Below, one piece after another: positions 1 through 64,000 of a stretch of DNA of 64,000 bases. The stretch is from Ardenticatenaceae bacterium (GTDB taxonomy: Bacteria > Chloroflexota > Anaerolineae > Promineifilales > Promineifilaceae): the NCBI GenBank assembly GCA_020634235.1, contig JACKCB010000001.1, positions 442,945 to 506,944 of the forward strand, read 5' to 3'. The position numbers and the translations under genes were made by a program. The notes beneath the pieces were generated by a model, which was not told the DNA's origin, ran no database searches, and saw only the letters and a list, made by a program, of their open reading frames with translations. Numbering within the stretch: position 1 is the stretch's first letter; each line of letters opens with the position of its first letter.

Positions 1-477
1 TCCGGCAGCCCTACCCGGCTCAGCGCCTCCCGCACCCGGGCATGATAGCGCGCCCCCTCCAACTGCTCATACTGCCCCACCAGCCGTTCATGCGCGGCCA
101 TCACCCGCTCCAGCCGGGCCAGGTCACCATACACCGCTGGCTCGCCCATCTCCTCCTCCAGGCGGCGCATCGCCGTTTCGATAGCCGCCAGCTCCGGCAG
201 CGCCGTCACCGCCTCCTCCCACACGCTCCGGCCGGGTGGCAGCACCGGTTCCTGCGGCAGACGCCCCCAGCTCAACCCGGCCGGGCGAAACACCGCCCCC
301 CCATCCGCTTCCAGCTCGCGGGCCATCAACCTCAGCAGCGTCGACTTCCCCACCCCATTTGGCCCCACCAGCCCCACACGCTGCCCCAACTGCAATTCCC
401 AGCTCACCCCCCCAAAAATCTCCCGGCCGGCCAGTGTCACCGCCACATCTGCCAGATTCATGATTACTTCAGCCATC
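1..477 (-). CDS. ABC-F family ATPase (EttA/Uup-like), N-terminal part; gene continues beyond window start
   Basis: Reverse-complement translation from ATG at 475-477 gives MAEVIMNLADVAVTLAGREIFGGVSWELQLGQRVGLVGPNGVGKSTLLRLM... with Walker A GPNGVGKST. The frame stays open to position 1. It is not in the ORF track because it is truncated at the window edge; the + strand ORF 42..545 is its antisense artefact. Confidence 0.7.
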
Positions 478-1012
478 AGTCACACTCCACTTGTTTCAGC
501 TTGCCAAAACGCCAACCAGCGCCGGGGCAGCGGCCAGGCTCATGACGGCCTGGCGTGTACTCCGCAGGCACAAAAAAAGCCGGGGCAGCTGCGCCTCGGC
601 TTTTCTATCGCAATCATCAGCGGTCAATTAGTTTGACATAATATTCGATCACCGGGCGCGCATTTAGGTCGCCCCCACTTCAGACCCACGAAAATGCCGG
701 AACAACACCCGGCCGGGAAAATCGAATAACTGTGCCATCAGCTACCAAGCATAAACTACGTCCGCCCCGGCGTCAAGTATATTGTCGAGTGCGCGAGTGC
801 CAGGCACAGGACGGAACGATGTCATGTAGCGCAAGTTTTGCTGCCCTGTACCTGGTACTTCAAGCCTATCAGGACACACACGACCCGGCCGGGCGTTTCC
901 CCTTTGAGCCCATTTCGACTATACTTGTTACGTCACTTTCTGAAACAATCCTTACCCATTCCAGTCACTTTTCAAATGCCCACCGGTTCACATTAGGAAC
1001 ATACGCTAGCGA

Positions 1013-2353
1013 ATGCGCCACAAGAAACGATTACTCCTGCCAACCCTCCCCCTGCTGGTCTGCTTGCTCCTCCTCGCGGCCTGCGACCTGGCGGCAAACA
1101 ACAGCAGCAATACCGCAGCCACCGCCACCGCCGGGCTGCCCACCCCGGCCAATACCCCCGACCTGGCCGCCGAAGTTACCACCCCAATCCCGCTCATCCC
1201 CAGCCAGAACGTGCTCACCATCACCGTCTGGACGGTGCCGGAAATCTCGCCGCGCAGCGAGATACCGGGCGGCCCAACCATGCTGGAGCAGTTCAACGCC
1301 TACGACACCAGCCACCCCGACCTGCACCTCTTTGTAGAACTGAAAACCGTAGCCGACCAGGGAGGAATGCTTAGCTACCTGCGCACCGGCCGGGGCGTGG
1401 CCCCCAAAGTGCTGCCCGACCTGGTCCTACTGCCGGCCAACCAACTGGCCGGCGCCGTCGCCGACGGCCTCATCTATCCGCTGACCGATCTGCCCCTCGA
1501 CCCCACCATCTACAACGACCTCTTCCCGGCCGCGCAAGACTTGGCCGCCATCAACGGCATCAACTACGGCTATCCCATCGCCCTTACCAACCTGCACCAC
1601 CTGGCCTACAACGCCAACGTCATCACCAGCACCATTCCCAGCCGCTGGAGCTCCTTCATCACCGTCCCCAACGGCCAGTTTGTCTTCCCGGCCGCCGGCC
1701 CGGCCGGGGCCGAGCTGGCCCTACAATTCTACCTGGCCAACGGCGGCACCCTCACCAGCACCGACGGCAAACCCAATCTGGACATCTCCCCCCTCACCAT
1801 CGCCCTGGAACGGATCAACCAGGGCGTGGCCGCCGGCTTCATCTGGCCCGGCAGCGGCAGCATCGGCACCGTGGAGACAGGCTGGCAGGCGCTGCAAAGC
1901 GAACTGCCCAACATCACCATGGCCACCGCCGACCTGTCGCTGCGCCAGCGCGCCCTGGGCAGTGCCCCCGCCTACAGCACCATCCCCGGTGAAATCGCCC
2001 CCTTCTCGCCCCTGGTCAACGCCTGGGTATGGGCGATTAGCACGCCCGACCCCGCCCGCCAGGTGCTGGCCGCCGAACTCATCAGTTGGCTGGCCACCCC
2101 GCAAAACCTGGCCGAATGGAGCTACCAGAGCCAGCGCGTGCCTGCCCAGCGCTCCGCCTTTGCCGCCTGGCCCTCCGCCAACAACGCCTTTGTCACCTTT
2201 TTGCGCGGCCAGGCCGAAGTAGCCCAGCCCTTCCCGGCCGGGGCCAACACCGCCGTCATCTCCGCCCTCACCGCCGCCGTCAACAGCGTCGTCAACCAGA
2301 CCAGCACCCCCCAGGCCGCGGCTGAACTGGCCGCACAGGCCGTAAGACAGTAA
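1013..2353 (+). CDS. extracellular solute-binding protein (ABC transporter SBP family 1-like), lipoprotein
   Basis: N-terminal signal peptide with lipobox LLLAAC. Length and composition are typical of sugar SBPs (ITVWTVPE... motif region). Confidence 0.55.
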   Translation: MRHKKRLLLPTLPLLVCLLLLAACDLAANNSSNTAATATAGLPTPANTPDLAAEVTTPIPLIPSQNVLTITVWTVPEISPRSEIPGGPTMLEQFNAYDTSHPDLHLFVELKTVADQGGMLSYLRTGRGVAPKVLPDLVLLPANQLAGAVADGLIYPLTDLPLDPTIYNDLFPAAQDLAAINGINYGYPIALTNLHHLAYNANVITSTIPSRWSSFITVPNGQFVFPAAGPAGAELALQFYLANGGTLTSTDGKPNLDISPLTIALERINQGVAAGFIWPGSGSIGTVETGWQALQSELPNITMATADLSLRQRALGSAPAYSTIPGEIAPFSPLVNAWVWAISTPDPARQVLAAELISWLATPQNLAEWSYQSQRVPAQRSAFAAWPSANNAFVTFLRGQAEVAQPFPAGANTAVISALTAAVNSVVNQTSTPQAAAELAAQAVRQ

Positions 2354-2359
2354 GCCACC

Positions 2360-63109: not shown

Positions 63110-63132
63110 CGTGCAAACCCTCTTGCCCTGCC

Positions 63133-63570
63133 TCAGCGCTCCAGCAGCATCGTCACCGGCCCGTCGTTGTGAATCTCCACCAGCATGTGCGCCCCAAAGA
63201 CGCCCATGGCCACGGGTAAGCCCAACTGCCGCAGTTGGCCGGCGAAATGGCTCACCAGCGGTTCGGCCTGCCCCGGCCGGGCGGCATCCGTGAACGACGG
63301 GCGGCGGCCTTTGCGCGCATCCCCATACAGCGTGAACTGCGAGACAACCAGGACCGCGCCATCCACATCGGCCAGCGAGGCATTCATCTTGCCCGCGGCA
63401 TCCTCAAAGATACGCAATCCGGCAACCTTGCCGGCCAGCCAATCGGCGGCGGCCAGGTCATCGGTGTGGGTCACGCCCAGCAGCACCACCAGCCCCCGGC
63501 CGATCTGGCCTACCACCTGGCCGTCCACGCTGACACTGGCCCGGCTAACCCGCTGAATCAGGGCACGCAT
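63133..63570 (-). CDS. dtd: D-aminoacyl-tRNA deacylase
   Basis: [33 protein letters not shown]... and C-terminal SQFTLYGD ... NDGPVT motifs, diagnostic of Dtd; 145 aa. Confidence 0.9.
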
Positions 63571-63573
63571 CGT

Positions 63574-64000
63574 CTACAGAATGCCTAGCTGGCTGTGGTC
63601 ACCCAGGGTCAGCTTCAACGCCTTGGGCTTGATTGGTGAACGGGTGATGACCACATCCCGCCCAATCAGGCTGTCTTGAATGCGCGCCTCGATATCCCGA
63701 ATCTTGCTGAACTCCAGGATGACCGAGTGCTCGATTTCCGCATTCTCCACCACCACGTTGTGATAAATGCTGGTGTACGGCCCAACATAACTGTTGATGA
63801 TGCGCGTGTTCTCGCCGATGATGGCCGGGCCGCGCACCACGCTGTTGATGATCTCCGCGCCGCGTTCGATGGTTACCCGGCGACCAATCTGGCTGTCGCG
63901 GTCCACGTAGCCCTCTACCTTGTAATCCAACTCCTCCAGCACCAGGTCGTTAGCCTCCAGCATGTCACCCGGCTGCCCGGTGTCGATCCACCAGCCGCGG
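63574..64000 (-). CDS. left-handed beta-helix (hexapeptide-repeat) C-terminal domain of a sugar-1-phosphate nucleotidyltransferase-like protein; gene continues beyond window end
   Basis: Imperfect hexapeptide repeats ([LIV]-G-x-x-x-x-[LIV]); the frame stays open past 64000. Confidence 0.55.
   Translation of the reverse strand, partial: RGWWIDTGQPGDMLEANDLVLEELDYKVEGYVDRDSQIGRRVTIERGAEIINSVVRGPAIIGENTRIINSYVGPYTSIYHNVVVENAEIEHSVILEFSKIRDIEARIQDSLIGRDVVITRSPIKPKALKLTLGDHSQLGIL

Follow-up and report, generated by a model that had tools for sequence, protein, structure and literature searches.

A HIP1-like, highly iterated G+C-only palindrome in a Promineifilaceae genome and its lineage-specific dialects

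The locus investigated here, referred to as the window, is a 64-kb stretch of DNA from a Promineifilaceae bacterium (Chloroflexota), and it is populated from end to end (1..64000, no strand assigned) by the 10-nt palindrome CCCGGCCGGG. We counted 95 exact copies (1.48 per kb), where a sequence-only reading of the same DNA had estimated roughly 80-90. The copies start at positions 276, 708, 884, 1699, 2233, 2434, 2507, 3339, 3395, 3729, 5153, 5357, 6243, 6669, 8194, 9386, 9517, 10044, 10143, 10270, 10871, 16627, 16686, 16952, 16990, 17278, 17610, 17669, 17997, 18843, 19583, 19686, 21216, 22549, 23492, 24051, 24250, 24573, 25640, 25714, 25925, 27744, 28381, 28797, 29972, 30830, 30847, 31000, 31372, 32881, 33271, 34491, 34683, 35301, 35634, 35816, 36687, 37539, 38022, 38508, 39964, 40982, 42101, 43328, 44142, 44591, 44759, 44852, 45173, 45956, 46010, 46138, 46434, 48287, 48309, 50063, 50312, 50870, 53060, 53407, 54898, 54994, 55251, 56184, 56270, 57802, 58356, 59558, 60422, 60566, 60839, 62096, 62735, 63005 and 63272; the example positions offered by the earlier reading all fell within 11 nt of true sites (276, 708, 884, 1699, 2233, 2507, 3339, 3729, 5153, 6243, 6669, 8194 and 9386). 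The 8-mer core CCGGCCGG occurs at 144 sites (2.25 per kb), with at least one in 42 of 51 genes, and CGGCCG occurs at 239 sites, those within all CCGGCCGG and CCCGGCCGGG copies included; the 12-mer CCCCGGCCGGGG is present 22 times. CCGG (twice) and GGCC are nested in the motif as had been stated; GCCGGC is not, its place being taken by CGGCCG. Our data comprise 64 kb of the window species and, for each relative, about 20 kb, from a single locus throughout, and by extrapolation the genome would hold thousands of CCCGGCCGGG copies.

The highest motif density of the window, 5-7 CCGGCCGG per kb, is found in a pair of minus-strand genes (8908..10213), in which a gene with a SAM-dependent methyltransferase fold (8908-9507) overlaps an Mrr_cat/NA-iREase1 gene (9500-10213). 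Several of their sites coincide with gaps or residue differences in orthologues, and these genes illustrate how sites are embedded in coding DNA; they are not candidate machinery. Two copies 17 nt apart (30830..30856) occupy the spacer between the divergent genes 29696-30598 (-) and 30977-32905 (+), where we looked for an extended inverted repeat and found none. Two motif copies (CCCGGCCGGGTGCTGG / CCAGCACCCGGCCGGG) together form a 32-bp perfect palindrome at 48287..48318, already recognized from sequence alone, between a methylmalonyl-CoA mutase gene (stop ~48340) and a PHO4 phosphate transporter gene (start ~48263). Its 16-nt arms are 100% complementary, and on the minus strand it is followed by C and a run of T8; the RNA folds into a 14-bp stem and then U8 (-38 kcal/mol, z = -4.05). 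This palindrome is a predicted intrinsic terminator; it is the only motif pair of the window with such a structure, and no other intergenic site of the window qualified as a terminator or promoter. Site pairs would occasionally be co-opted as terminator stems. Rfam and tRNA scans of the window returned nothing.

The abundance of the motif is not accounted for by sequence composition. Dinucleotide shuffles of the window predict 0.67 copies of CCCGGCCGGG, Markov models of orders 1-4 predict 0.7-3, or 0.52-0.68 when trained with the sites masked, and the enrichment amounts to 140-180-fold. The 8-mer is likewise in excess (144 observed versus 5.5-15.6 expected), and when protein sequence and codon usage are kept constant, the coding regions should contain 5.2 +/- 2.2 copies of CCCGGCCGGG instead of the 82 observed. 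The remaining 31 G/C-only palindromic 10-mers are present 0-3 times each. A maximal-order Markov expectation had been proposed as the decisive comparison, with a lack of excess over it counting against the motif; it gives 88.6 copies versus 95 observed, which formally is that outcome, but the comparison is uninformative because the conditioning 8- and 9-mers are nearly all copies of the motif themselves.

The sites are short, single and independent. Their flanks reach background composition beyond +/-6 and conservation ends at 12 nt, in agreement with the earlier view that no one longer element is being repeated. Genes contain 82 copies, distributed over the frames as 18/21/43, and 13 lie outside called genes, as expected from the claim that copies occur in every frame and in intergenic DNA; the three frames yield three unrelated peptides, PGRx, xRPG and xPAG, of the types listed before. 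One-mismatch variants of CCCGGCCGGG number 16, 7, 15 and 20 at positions 1, 2, 9 and 10, with a total of four in the central six, and relatives display a similar outer-to-inner gradient of 29/13/12/3. Single sites in coding DNA of any frame and in non-coding DNA, one-nucleotide variants biased towards the outermost positions, symmetric extensions, and an excess of at least 15-fold over Markov expectation at ~0.3-2.7 sites per kb are the marks of highly iterated palindromes of the HIP type, and CCCGGCCGGG/CCGGCCGG displays them all. Dispersed repeats (REP/BIME/MITE), which are units of more than ~20 nt and mostly intergenic, were considered and rejected, conservation here spanning at most 12 nt and 86% of the copies being genic. 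Polar chromosome motifs such as Chi and KOPS are asymmetric words with strand skew; CCCGGCCGGG is palindromic and therefore cannot be polar.

We then considered the consequences for the encoded proteins. CCGGCCGG encodes each of the window's 49 Pro-Ala-Gly tripeptides, in 48 cases with GGG, the minor codon, and PAG is 4-5 times too frequent (49 versus 12.4 expected), whereas its permutations occur 4-15 times. Each of the dialects described below has its own tripeptide raised 5-7-fold, namely PAG, TAV, AAA or SA[DE]. Codons within sites agree with their orthologues at 43% identity compared with 58% for other codons. The motif overrides protein coding, and the force acts on DNA, not on protein; that every Pro-Ala-Gly of the window is dictated by the motif shows how strongly a DNA-level force can reshape proteins.

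Conservation was assessed within the species and, as the sequence-only reading had suggested, among relatives, and at both levels it exceeds the neutral expectation, a further property of HIP-type motifs. Across 26 co-specific metagenome contigs, the 960 bases within sites contained no SNP (7.36 expected, P = 6e-4), while control G/C-only runs in the same comparison carried 37 SNPs (35.8 expected). In species pairs that share the A..T dialect (75-80% DNA identity), 79% of sites are intact compared with 17% of other 8-mers, although part of this between-species conservation could be convergent re-creation at conserved TAV codons. For about 85% of the window sites, the orthologous position in relatives lacks the core, and 15 of 16 widely conserved ACGGCCGT positions are without a core in the window; on these alignments, sites are strongly conserved within a dialect and not between dialects. 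In an attempt to date the dialect switch, we found no phosphoglucomutase (PGM) at 83%-99% identity among 5.8 billion proteins. The observed conservation fits selection and biased repair alike and cannot separate them.

A strain-variable island (11620..16703), at whose position other strains have a different gene, is motif-poor. It holds a small ORF and a 3.9-kb gene with CHAT, NB-ARC and TPR domains by Pfam (11819-15730, minus strand) that has no 10-mer and a single 8-mer (9.3 expected, P = 9e-4), and its 8-mer density is 0.79 per kb compared with 2.2-2.9 per kb elsewhere. Recently acquired DNA is depleted of sites. The copies of CCCGGCCGGG, in genes and spacers alike, originated independently of one another through point substitutions in DNA resident in the chromosome and were then retained, and CCCGGCCGGG is a HIP-type highly iterated palindrome, a likeness noted in the sequence-only reading and on which flanks, frames, outer variants, conservation and island depletion all agree.

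Relatives of the window species contain other hyper-abundant palindromes that share the CGGCCG core. Most have ACGGCCGT, and others have GCGGCCGC, TCGGCCGA or just the core. The symmetric flanks differ by lineage (A..T, G..C, T..A, C..G, or none), all four pairs occurring, and related genomes without any dialect also exist, which served as the control group. One clade has purged CGGCCG (1 observed versus 25.7 expected) and accumulated TGCCGGCA (28 versus 1.3), and another has 19 copies of GCCGGC (228 expected) and 401 of ACGGCCGT (7.4 expected), so the same G/C hexamers are purged in some clades and hyper-accumulated in others. By these comparisons CCCGGCCGGG is the local dialect of a Promineifilaceae-wide system with CGGCCG as its invariant core.

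HIP1 has been known for more than 30 years; its function and origin are unsettled. To our knowledge, the HIP phenomenon has been studied so far in cyanobacteria only, where one motif dominates. HIP1 (GCGATCGC) is accompanied in cyanobacteria by alternate HIPs such as GGGATCCC, TCGATCGA and CAGGCCTG (PMC4390886, PMC5861425); it has cognate orphan methyltransferases (PMC4390886), its sites are conserved (PMC5861425), and it enhances transformation in a way that depends on methylation (bioRxiv 10.1101/2024.09.10.611283). The CCCGGCCGGG system, for which HIP1 is the closest analogue, looks like a second natural example of the phenomenon. Both motifs are short G+C-rich palindromes at ~0.3-2.7 per kb with tens- to hundreds-fold enrichment (PMC4390886, PMC5861425), occur as single sites in genes and spacers, extend symmetrically to a 10-mer in some genomes, have one-nucleotide variants biased outward, are conserved beyond neutral expectation, and are replaced by other palindromes in some lineages. 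HIP1 proper, with its cyanobacterial host and its CGATCG core containing GATC, was nevertheless rejected as an assignment for CCCGGCCGGG of Promineifilaceae. The phylum differs, the core is CGGCCG and therefore lacks a GATC (Dam-type) site, CCCGGCCGGG consists entirely of G and C with information spanning 10-12 nt, and one family uses all four symmetric flank pairs as well as core-only and swapped-core (TGCCGGCA) lineages. Cognate methyltransferases are known for HIP1, whereas the reader in Promineifilaceae is a candidate that we infer. A literature search for CCCGGCCGGG-type motifs or HIPs in Chloroflexi found no description, the matches being only primer sequences and cyanobacterial papers.

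What drives the retention and accumulation of the sites is, in our estimate at even chances, a methyltransferase-type or other protein reader of the CGGCCG palindrome. A resident protein system would read the palindrome symmetrically around CGGCCG, the likeliest reader being a DNA methyltransferase with EagI/NotI-like specificity, either solitary or derived from restriction-modification, together with whatever reads its mark. DNA with the cognate site would be favoured in repair, recombination or DNA uptake; cognate sites would be kept and new ones fixed even where the encoded protein suffers to some extent, and site density would grow with residence time. When the flank specificity of the reader changes, the old set of sites would decay and a new set would be written elsewhere. 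Type II enzymes recognize CGGCCG (EagI), GCGGCCGC (NotI) and GCCGGC (NaeI/NgoMIV), and the core and the GCGGCCGC dialect are identical to the EagI and NotI sites. Sister lineages purge exactly these hexamers, as with Type II restriction-modification targets, and the pattern of purging and accumulation indirectly links the motif to enzymes of this type. Unlike active restriction targets, which are avoided in the host genome, the site is hyper-accumulated here, as one would, if anything, expect for the target of an orphan methyltransferase. The graded symmetric profile (core, then +/-1, +/-2 and +/-3) resembles that of a dimeric DNA binder more than the sharp specificity of a Type II methyltransferase, and this counts against a methyltransferase reader, as does the lack of depletion among C-to-T neighbours of the motif, which a deamination-repair ratchet would have left behind.

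Pfam and NCBIfam annotation of the window genes revealed no DNA methyltransferase, Vsr or competence genes, and regular-expression searches for motifs of Vsr and of C5, N4 and N6 methyltransferases in six-frame ORFs of the window and 86 related loci turned up no such gene either. All that matched was a set of peptidases, UbiA, a nucleotidyl transferase and one strain-specific Eco57I/PstI-type fusion. A further mark of HIP-type motifs is a cognate methyltransferase, usually an orphan, that recognizes the core, and its absence from the window and the 86 loci also counts against the proposed reader. Viral contigs with closely paired motifs gave at least 120 matches, mostly single G+C-rich hairpins on contigs of 64-74% G+C, and none among the matches listed carried the motif as densely as the window.

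The sites could alternatively be a DNA uptake or transformation signal, accumulating through the preference of a competence receptor followed by recombination, with dialects isolating lineages and methylation unneeded; we regard this as unlikely. DUS of Neisseriaceae, which also have dialects, and USS of Pasteurellaceae occur at about one copy per kb, have a conserved core with lineage variants, over-represent the tripeptides they encode, favour less constrained protein positions, are scarce in acquired islands and form inverted pairs that serve as terminators. The CCCGGCCGGG system resembles them in density (1.5-2.3 per kb), in its conserved core with lineage-specific flanks, in its proteome imprint at weakly conserved residues, in its depletion from the foreign island and in its one inverted pair acting as a predicted terminator. 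Site positions are lost at a dialect change, and on an uptake reading the density of the current motif would therefore matter, not its position. DUS and USS are, however, asymmetric 9-12-mers with one reading orientation, recognized by a competence receptor, and CCCGGCCGGG is a perfect palindrome. We know of no natural transformation in Promineifilaceae, competence genes were not found in the window or the 86 loci, and the HhH protein at 6406-6711 scores below all ComEA model cut-offs. Uptake alone also does not predict the reciprocal purging or accumulation of restriction-type hexamers. For HIP1, a role in uptake has recently been proposed (bioRxiv 10.64898/2026.06.24.733823; 10.1101/2024.09.10.611283).

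The sites might instead be the functionless by-product of a ratchet, in which very-short-patch or methyl-directed mismatch repair converts near-cognate sequences, a reading that we hold to be rather improbable. In E. coli, CCWGG-type words are enriched through very-short-patch repair, a bias tied to a cytosine methyltransferase, but only few-fold and with depletion of the T:G-derived neighbour words. Oligomer frequencies are skewed genome-wide in both cases; here the excess is above 100-fold and one-step neighbours, including the C-to-T products, are not depleted, their observed/expected ratios matching the no-dialect controls (a comparison of modest power). A ratchet would account for sites arising by substitution everywhere, even at amino-acid cost, for their low density in recently acquired DNA and equally for SNP-free sites, if variants are repaired back, and it has a precedent in Elhai's model for HIP1 (PMC4390886). 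Elhai's G-methyl-C rule explains G...C flanks and cannot be general here because all four flank pairs occur. Sites also persist across species at 75-80% DNA identity, and a like pattern in HIP1 was read as selection by Xu et al. (PMC5861425).

That the sites bind a nucleoid-organizing or chromosome-architecture protein is, in our judgement, very doubtful. The graded symmetric profile is what a dimeric binder would give and the sites are conserved, but their positions are not kept when the dialect changes, and thousands per genome far exceed the numbers known for architectural sites such as parS or those bound by Noc and SlmA. For HIP1, Xu et al. proposed such a role from a 10-90 kb periodicity (PMC5861425); spacing in our 64 kb, too short for testing such periods, is near Poisson (CV 1.09), and we saw no structure in spacing or in position within genes. 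A mobile or repetitive element (REP, BIME, MITE), selection for a peptide motif or a by-product of base composition or codon usage is scarcely credible, even for a G+C-rich motif that encodes the common residues Pro, Ala, Gly and Arg in a 63% G+C genome, given flanks unconserved past the 12-mer, predominantly genic copies, three unrelated peptides, 31 sparse control palindromes, and composition, Markov and synonymous-codon nulls that fail by 10- to 180-fold.

Returning to a protein reader of CGGCCG, we put forward, at slightly less than even confidence, that Promineifilaceae carry an undescribed, evolvable genome-dialect system. A CGGCCG-centred sequence-reading machinery would have undergone at least 4-5 switches of flank specificity within one family, each erasing and rewriting thousands of sites and measurably changing proteome composition, with sister clades purging the same hexamers as restriction targets. 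In practical terms, Chloroflexi contigs from wastewater metagenomes can be binned with the motifs as lineage barcodes, and palindromic motif pairs can break assemblies. The A..T, G..C, T..A, C..G, core-only, swapped-core and dialect-free states co-exist in a single family of a second phylum, and the cause is therefore testable by comparison, any gene or target-recognition domain that co-varies with dialect being candidate machinery. If the proposal is true, the many independent switches would constitute a natural experiment in which phylogenetic profiling could identify the HIP writer or reader protein, and this would address the function of HIP1, which the HIP1 literature calls unresolved.

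The sequence-only reading had described CCCGGCCGGG as a highly iterated palindrome of the HIP1 type, and every example position that it listed lies at most 11 nt from a true site in an exact search. We counted 95 exact copies of this 10-mer in the 64-kb window, compared with 0.67 (maximum 3) in dinucleotide-preserving shuffles. Markov models of orders 1 to 4 gave an expectation of 0.7–3 copies and, with the sites masked in training, of 0.52–0.68 copies (5.5–15.6 for the 8-mer CCGGCCGG). The counts are nested, with 239 occurrences of the hexamer core CGGCCG, 144 of CCGGCCGG, the 95 10-mers and 22 of CCCCGGCCGGGG, and each of the remaining 31 palindromic G/C-only 10-mers occurs 0–3 times. 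The maximal-order Markov test suggested by the earlier reading returned 88.6 expected versus 95 observed copies and proved uninformative, because the 8- and 9-mers on which it conditions are almost all motif copies. In the strictest null the proteins and the codon usage of each gene were kept fixed and synonymous codons alone were permuted; here, the coding DNA held 82 10-mers versus 5.2 ± 2.2 expected, and 128 8-mers versus 24 expected. As for the shorter sites thought to be nested in the 10-mer, CCGG (twice) and GGCC (once) are present, whereas GCCGGC is absent and CGGCCG is found instead. A crystal structure of d(CCCGGCCGGG) in the A-DNA form is known.

Base composition around the 95 sites is at background past ±6, while at ±6 itself C...G is weakly preferred (45 and 44 of 95) and G...C occurs 0 times. 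This shows each copy to be a short site of its own, in line with the earlier reading, and not part of a longer repeated unit. One-mismatch variants are nearly confined to positions 1, 2, 9 and 10 (16, 7, 15 and 20, respectively), with a total of 4 in the central six. Heuristic gene calling with a codon-usage model gave 51 genes, which together span 92% of the window, and these match the annotations on corresponding metagenome contigs save for over-long starts (e.g., 47268-48362). Copies do fall in every frame and in intergenic DNA, with 82 10-mers inside genes (frames 18/21/43) and 13 outside. The density of 8-mers is 2.2 per kb in coding versus 3.1 per kb in non-coding DNA, site spacing in the 64-kb window is near Poisson (CV 1.09) and the distribution of positions within genes is flat.

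All 49 Pro-Ala-Gly (PAG) tripeptides in the window genes are spelled CCG-GCC-GG, compared with 27.5% predicted from codon usage, and in 48 of them Gly has its minor codon GGG, so that CCGGCCGGG is complete. The tripeptide itself is in excess (49 versus 12.4 predicted from how frequent each amino acid is; each of its five permutations occurs 4–15 times), and RPG (32) and PGR (22), the readings of the other two frames, are likewise inflated. Residues at the orthologous positions of related species are mostly different, for example K-S-G versus P-A-G in the window, and identity to orthologues is 43% for site codons versus 58% for other codons (P = 8e-4). The spelling and excess of PAG, together with the lower conservation of site codons, thus indicate that the pressure acts on DNA and that it is strong enough to alter proteins where this is tolerated.

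Using the phosphoglucomutase (PGM, 3782-5209) as a query, we retrieved 80 loci in species-representative genomes, all at ≤83% identity and all from Chloroflexota MAGs labelled Promineifilaceae, Ardenticatenaceae or Anaerolineae. No PGM between 83% and 99% identity was present among 5.8 billion proteins, so, on current data, the window species stands as an isolated lineage. Searches with exact proteins yielded 26 same-species metagenome contigs at 99.5–99.9% DNA identity. Pieces of ~10–21 kb around one locus were each scored for palindromic 8-mers in the relatives, the window species being sampled by 64 kb, and dialect groups, defined by the flanks on CGGCCG, were positioned with a neighbour-joining tree of one gene. 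Most related loci carry ACGGCCGT at ~2 per kb, with 401 copies versus 7.4 expected in an 11-locus clade, and in some it is lengthened to AACGGCCGTT (30 of 34 in locus L032, 17 of 18 in L044). Loci L054, L072 and L073 use GCGGCCGC (94 versus 2.2 expected), L085 uses TCGGCCGA, frequently as TTCGGCCGAA, and CCGGCCGG lengthened to CCCGGCCGGG belongs to the window species alone among the loci scored. The core occurs at 4–5 per kb without flank preference in L074, L013, L017, L070 and L079. A fused, non-palindromic GCCGGCCG/CGGCCGGC, spanning both hexamer cores, is the top 8-mer in L019 and L033 and near the top in L079, which suggests that CGGCCG and GCCGGC are both favoured there. The clade of L069, L078 and L084 has CGGCCG once versus 25.7 expected and TGCCGGCA 28 times versus 1.3, inverting what most relatives show, and ~10 related loci are without any of these dialects. 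Every dialect marks the proteome with its own frame-0 tripeptide; per 10,000 codons, PAG reaches 24.9 versus ~4.4, TAV 32.5 versus ~5, AAA 55 versus 17–24 and SA[DE] 23.8 versus 3–6. The family-wide dialects appear to be a new observation, and full-text searches, with most subscription journals outside their coverage, gave nothing relevant on these motifs or on HIPs in Chloroflexi or Promineifilaceae. Among the IMG/VR viral matches listed, contig L177 (6.3 kb) has six 10-mers and L134 (12.7 kb) has 62 CGGCCG, moderately raised numbers; both have a G+C content of 68–70%, unlike the window.

Strain contigs from two metagenome series, with each SNP position counted once, gave 432 SNP positions over 51.7 kb and 0 in the 960 covered CCGGCCGG-site bases, where an expectation stratified for base class and codon position was 7.36 (P = 6e-4). 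As a control, the remaining G/C-only 8-nt runs had 37 SNPs versus 35.8 expected. Species of the A..T dialect at 75–80% DNA identity retain 79% of each other's ACGGCCGT sites intact versus 17% of other 8-mers, and those at 90–95% identity retain 93% versus 57%; single-base differences within a site lie mostly at its outermost position (29, 13, 12 and 3 from outside to centre). Convergent re-creation at conserved codons may account for part of this conservation. Different dialects do not have their site positions in common: for about 85% of window sites the orthologous position in relatives lacks a core, and of the 16 ACGGCCGT positions kept in 10 or more loci, 15 lack one in the window, some of them, such as ACGGCGCT or GCCGCCGT, looking like decayed relics. 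The only three strain SNPs in any CGGCCG core (2974, 9063 and 30084) are in the non-canonical CCGGCCGC (twice) and TCGGCCGC (once); all are C>T or G>A at inner cytosines, in a very small sample (n = 3).

A strain-variable island (11620-16703) holds a CHAT/NB-ARC/TPR gene (1303 aa) in the window and, in the same place in strain contigs L001 (17839-20591), L004 and L006 (11852-14604), an Eco57I-methylase/BsuBI-PstI endonuclease fusion of 52.5% G+C. Its 8-mer density is 0.79 per kb versus 2.2–2.9 per kb elsewhere, and the 3.9-kb CHAT/NB-ARC/TPR gene has one 8-mer versus 9.3 expected (P = 9e-4). An extra 4.8-kb nSTAND/TPR/BTAD insertion in strain contig L002 (2295-7100), between window positions 779 and 882, has normal motif density. 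The window's top density (5–7 per kb) is found at 8908-10213 (minus strand), where two overlapping genes encode a SAM-methyltransferase fold and Mrr_cat/NA-iREase1; several sites lie at orthologue gaps, and the pair is syntenic in ~21–28 related loci, dialect-free ones included. The product of 57065-58921 (plus strand, 618 aa) matches MutS domain V alone, far under the MutS1/MutS2 cut-offs, and is by these matches a putative MutS-related ATPase, adjoining genes with EAD7 and Big_7 domains. The 101-aa product of 6406-6711 (plus strand) is mainly a C-terminal helix-hairpin-helix domain of the type appended elsewhere to L21, S2 or PhaH, and scores below all ComEA models.

One motif pair forms a 32-bp perfect palindrome (48287-48318) between the methylmalonyl-CoA mutase and PHO4 transporter genes, the sole structure-building site pair in the window. 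On the minus strand it is predicted to fold as a hairpin of 14 bp with U8 after it (−38 kcal/mol, z = −4.05); it is an intrinsic terminator, in line with the original guess. Same-species metagenome contigs L105 and L106 terminate exactly at this palindrome, and short-read assemblies are probably broken by paired motif copies.

A DNA-level, palindrome-symmetric and lineage-specific force is shown both to make and to keep the sites. We propose that a resident protein system would recognise CGGCCG and its flanks, and favour one linked to a methyltransferase, a statement whose chances as a whole we regard as evenly balanced. The methyltransferase link is favoured because classical Type II enzymes, EagI and NotI, have the core and one of the dialects as their specificities, and because sister clades purge exactly these hexamers, like restriction targets. 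GCCGGC is purged (19 versus 228 expected) in the Leptofilum-like clade richest in ACGGCCGT, GCGCGC and CGCGCG occur once each versus 13–17 expected in the GCGGCCGC clade, and the window avoids GGGCCC (3 versus 64 expected), GGCGCC (20 versus 99) and CCCGGG (10 versus 46); such depletion beside a hyper-accumulated motif looks like classical restriction avoidance. HIP1 provides a further reason as a precedent, with cognate orphan methyltransferases and transformation effects that depend on methylation (PMC4390886; bioRxiv 10.1101/2024.09.10.611283). Against the link, we found no gene for such a system in the window or among the related loci examined and no Vsr-type neighbour depletion, and the specificity profile, being graded, resembles a dimeric binder more. 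Nor can Elhai's G-methyl-C explanation of HIP1's G...C flanks be general here, since every one of the four symmetric flank pairs is represented. An uptake-signal drive without methylation, for which DUS and USS are parallels, seems doubtful, and a repair ratchet without function is unlikely. A role in nucleoid architecture appears distinctly improbable, and a repeat element, peptide selection or a composition artefact is refuted, with next to no chance left.

In every testable respect the window motif behaves as a HIP, differing from HIP1 in host, core, length and breadth of dialects. In summary, the sites arise by substitution, build up with residence time, are kept firmly while a dialect lasts and are dropped when the dialect changes.
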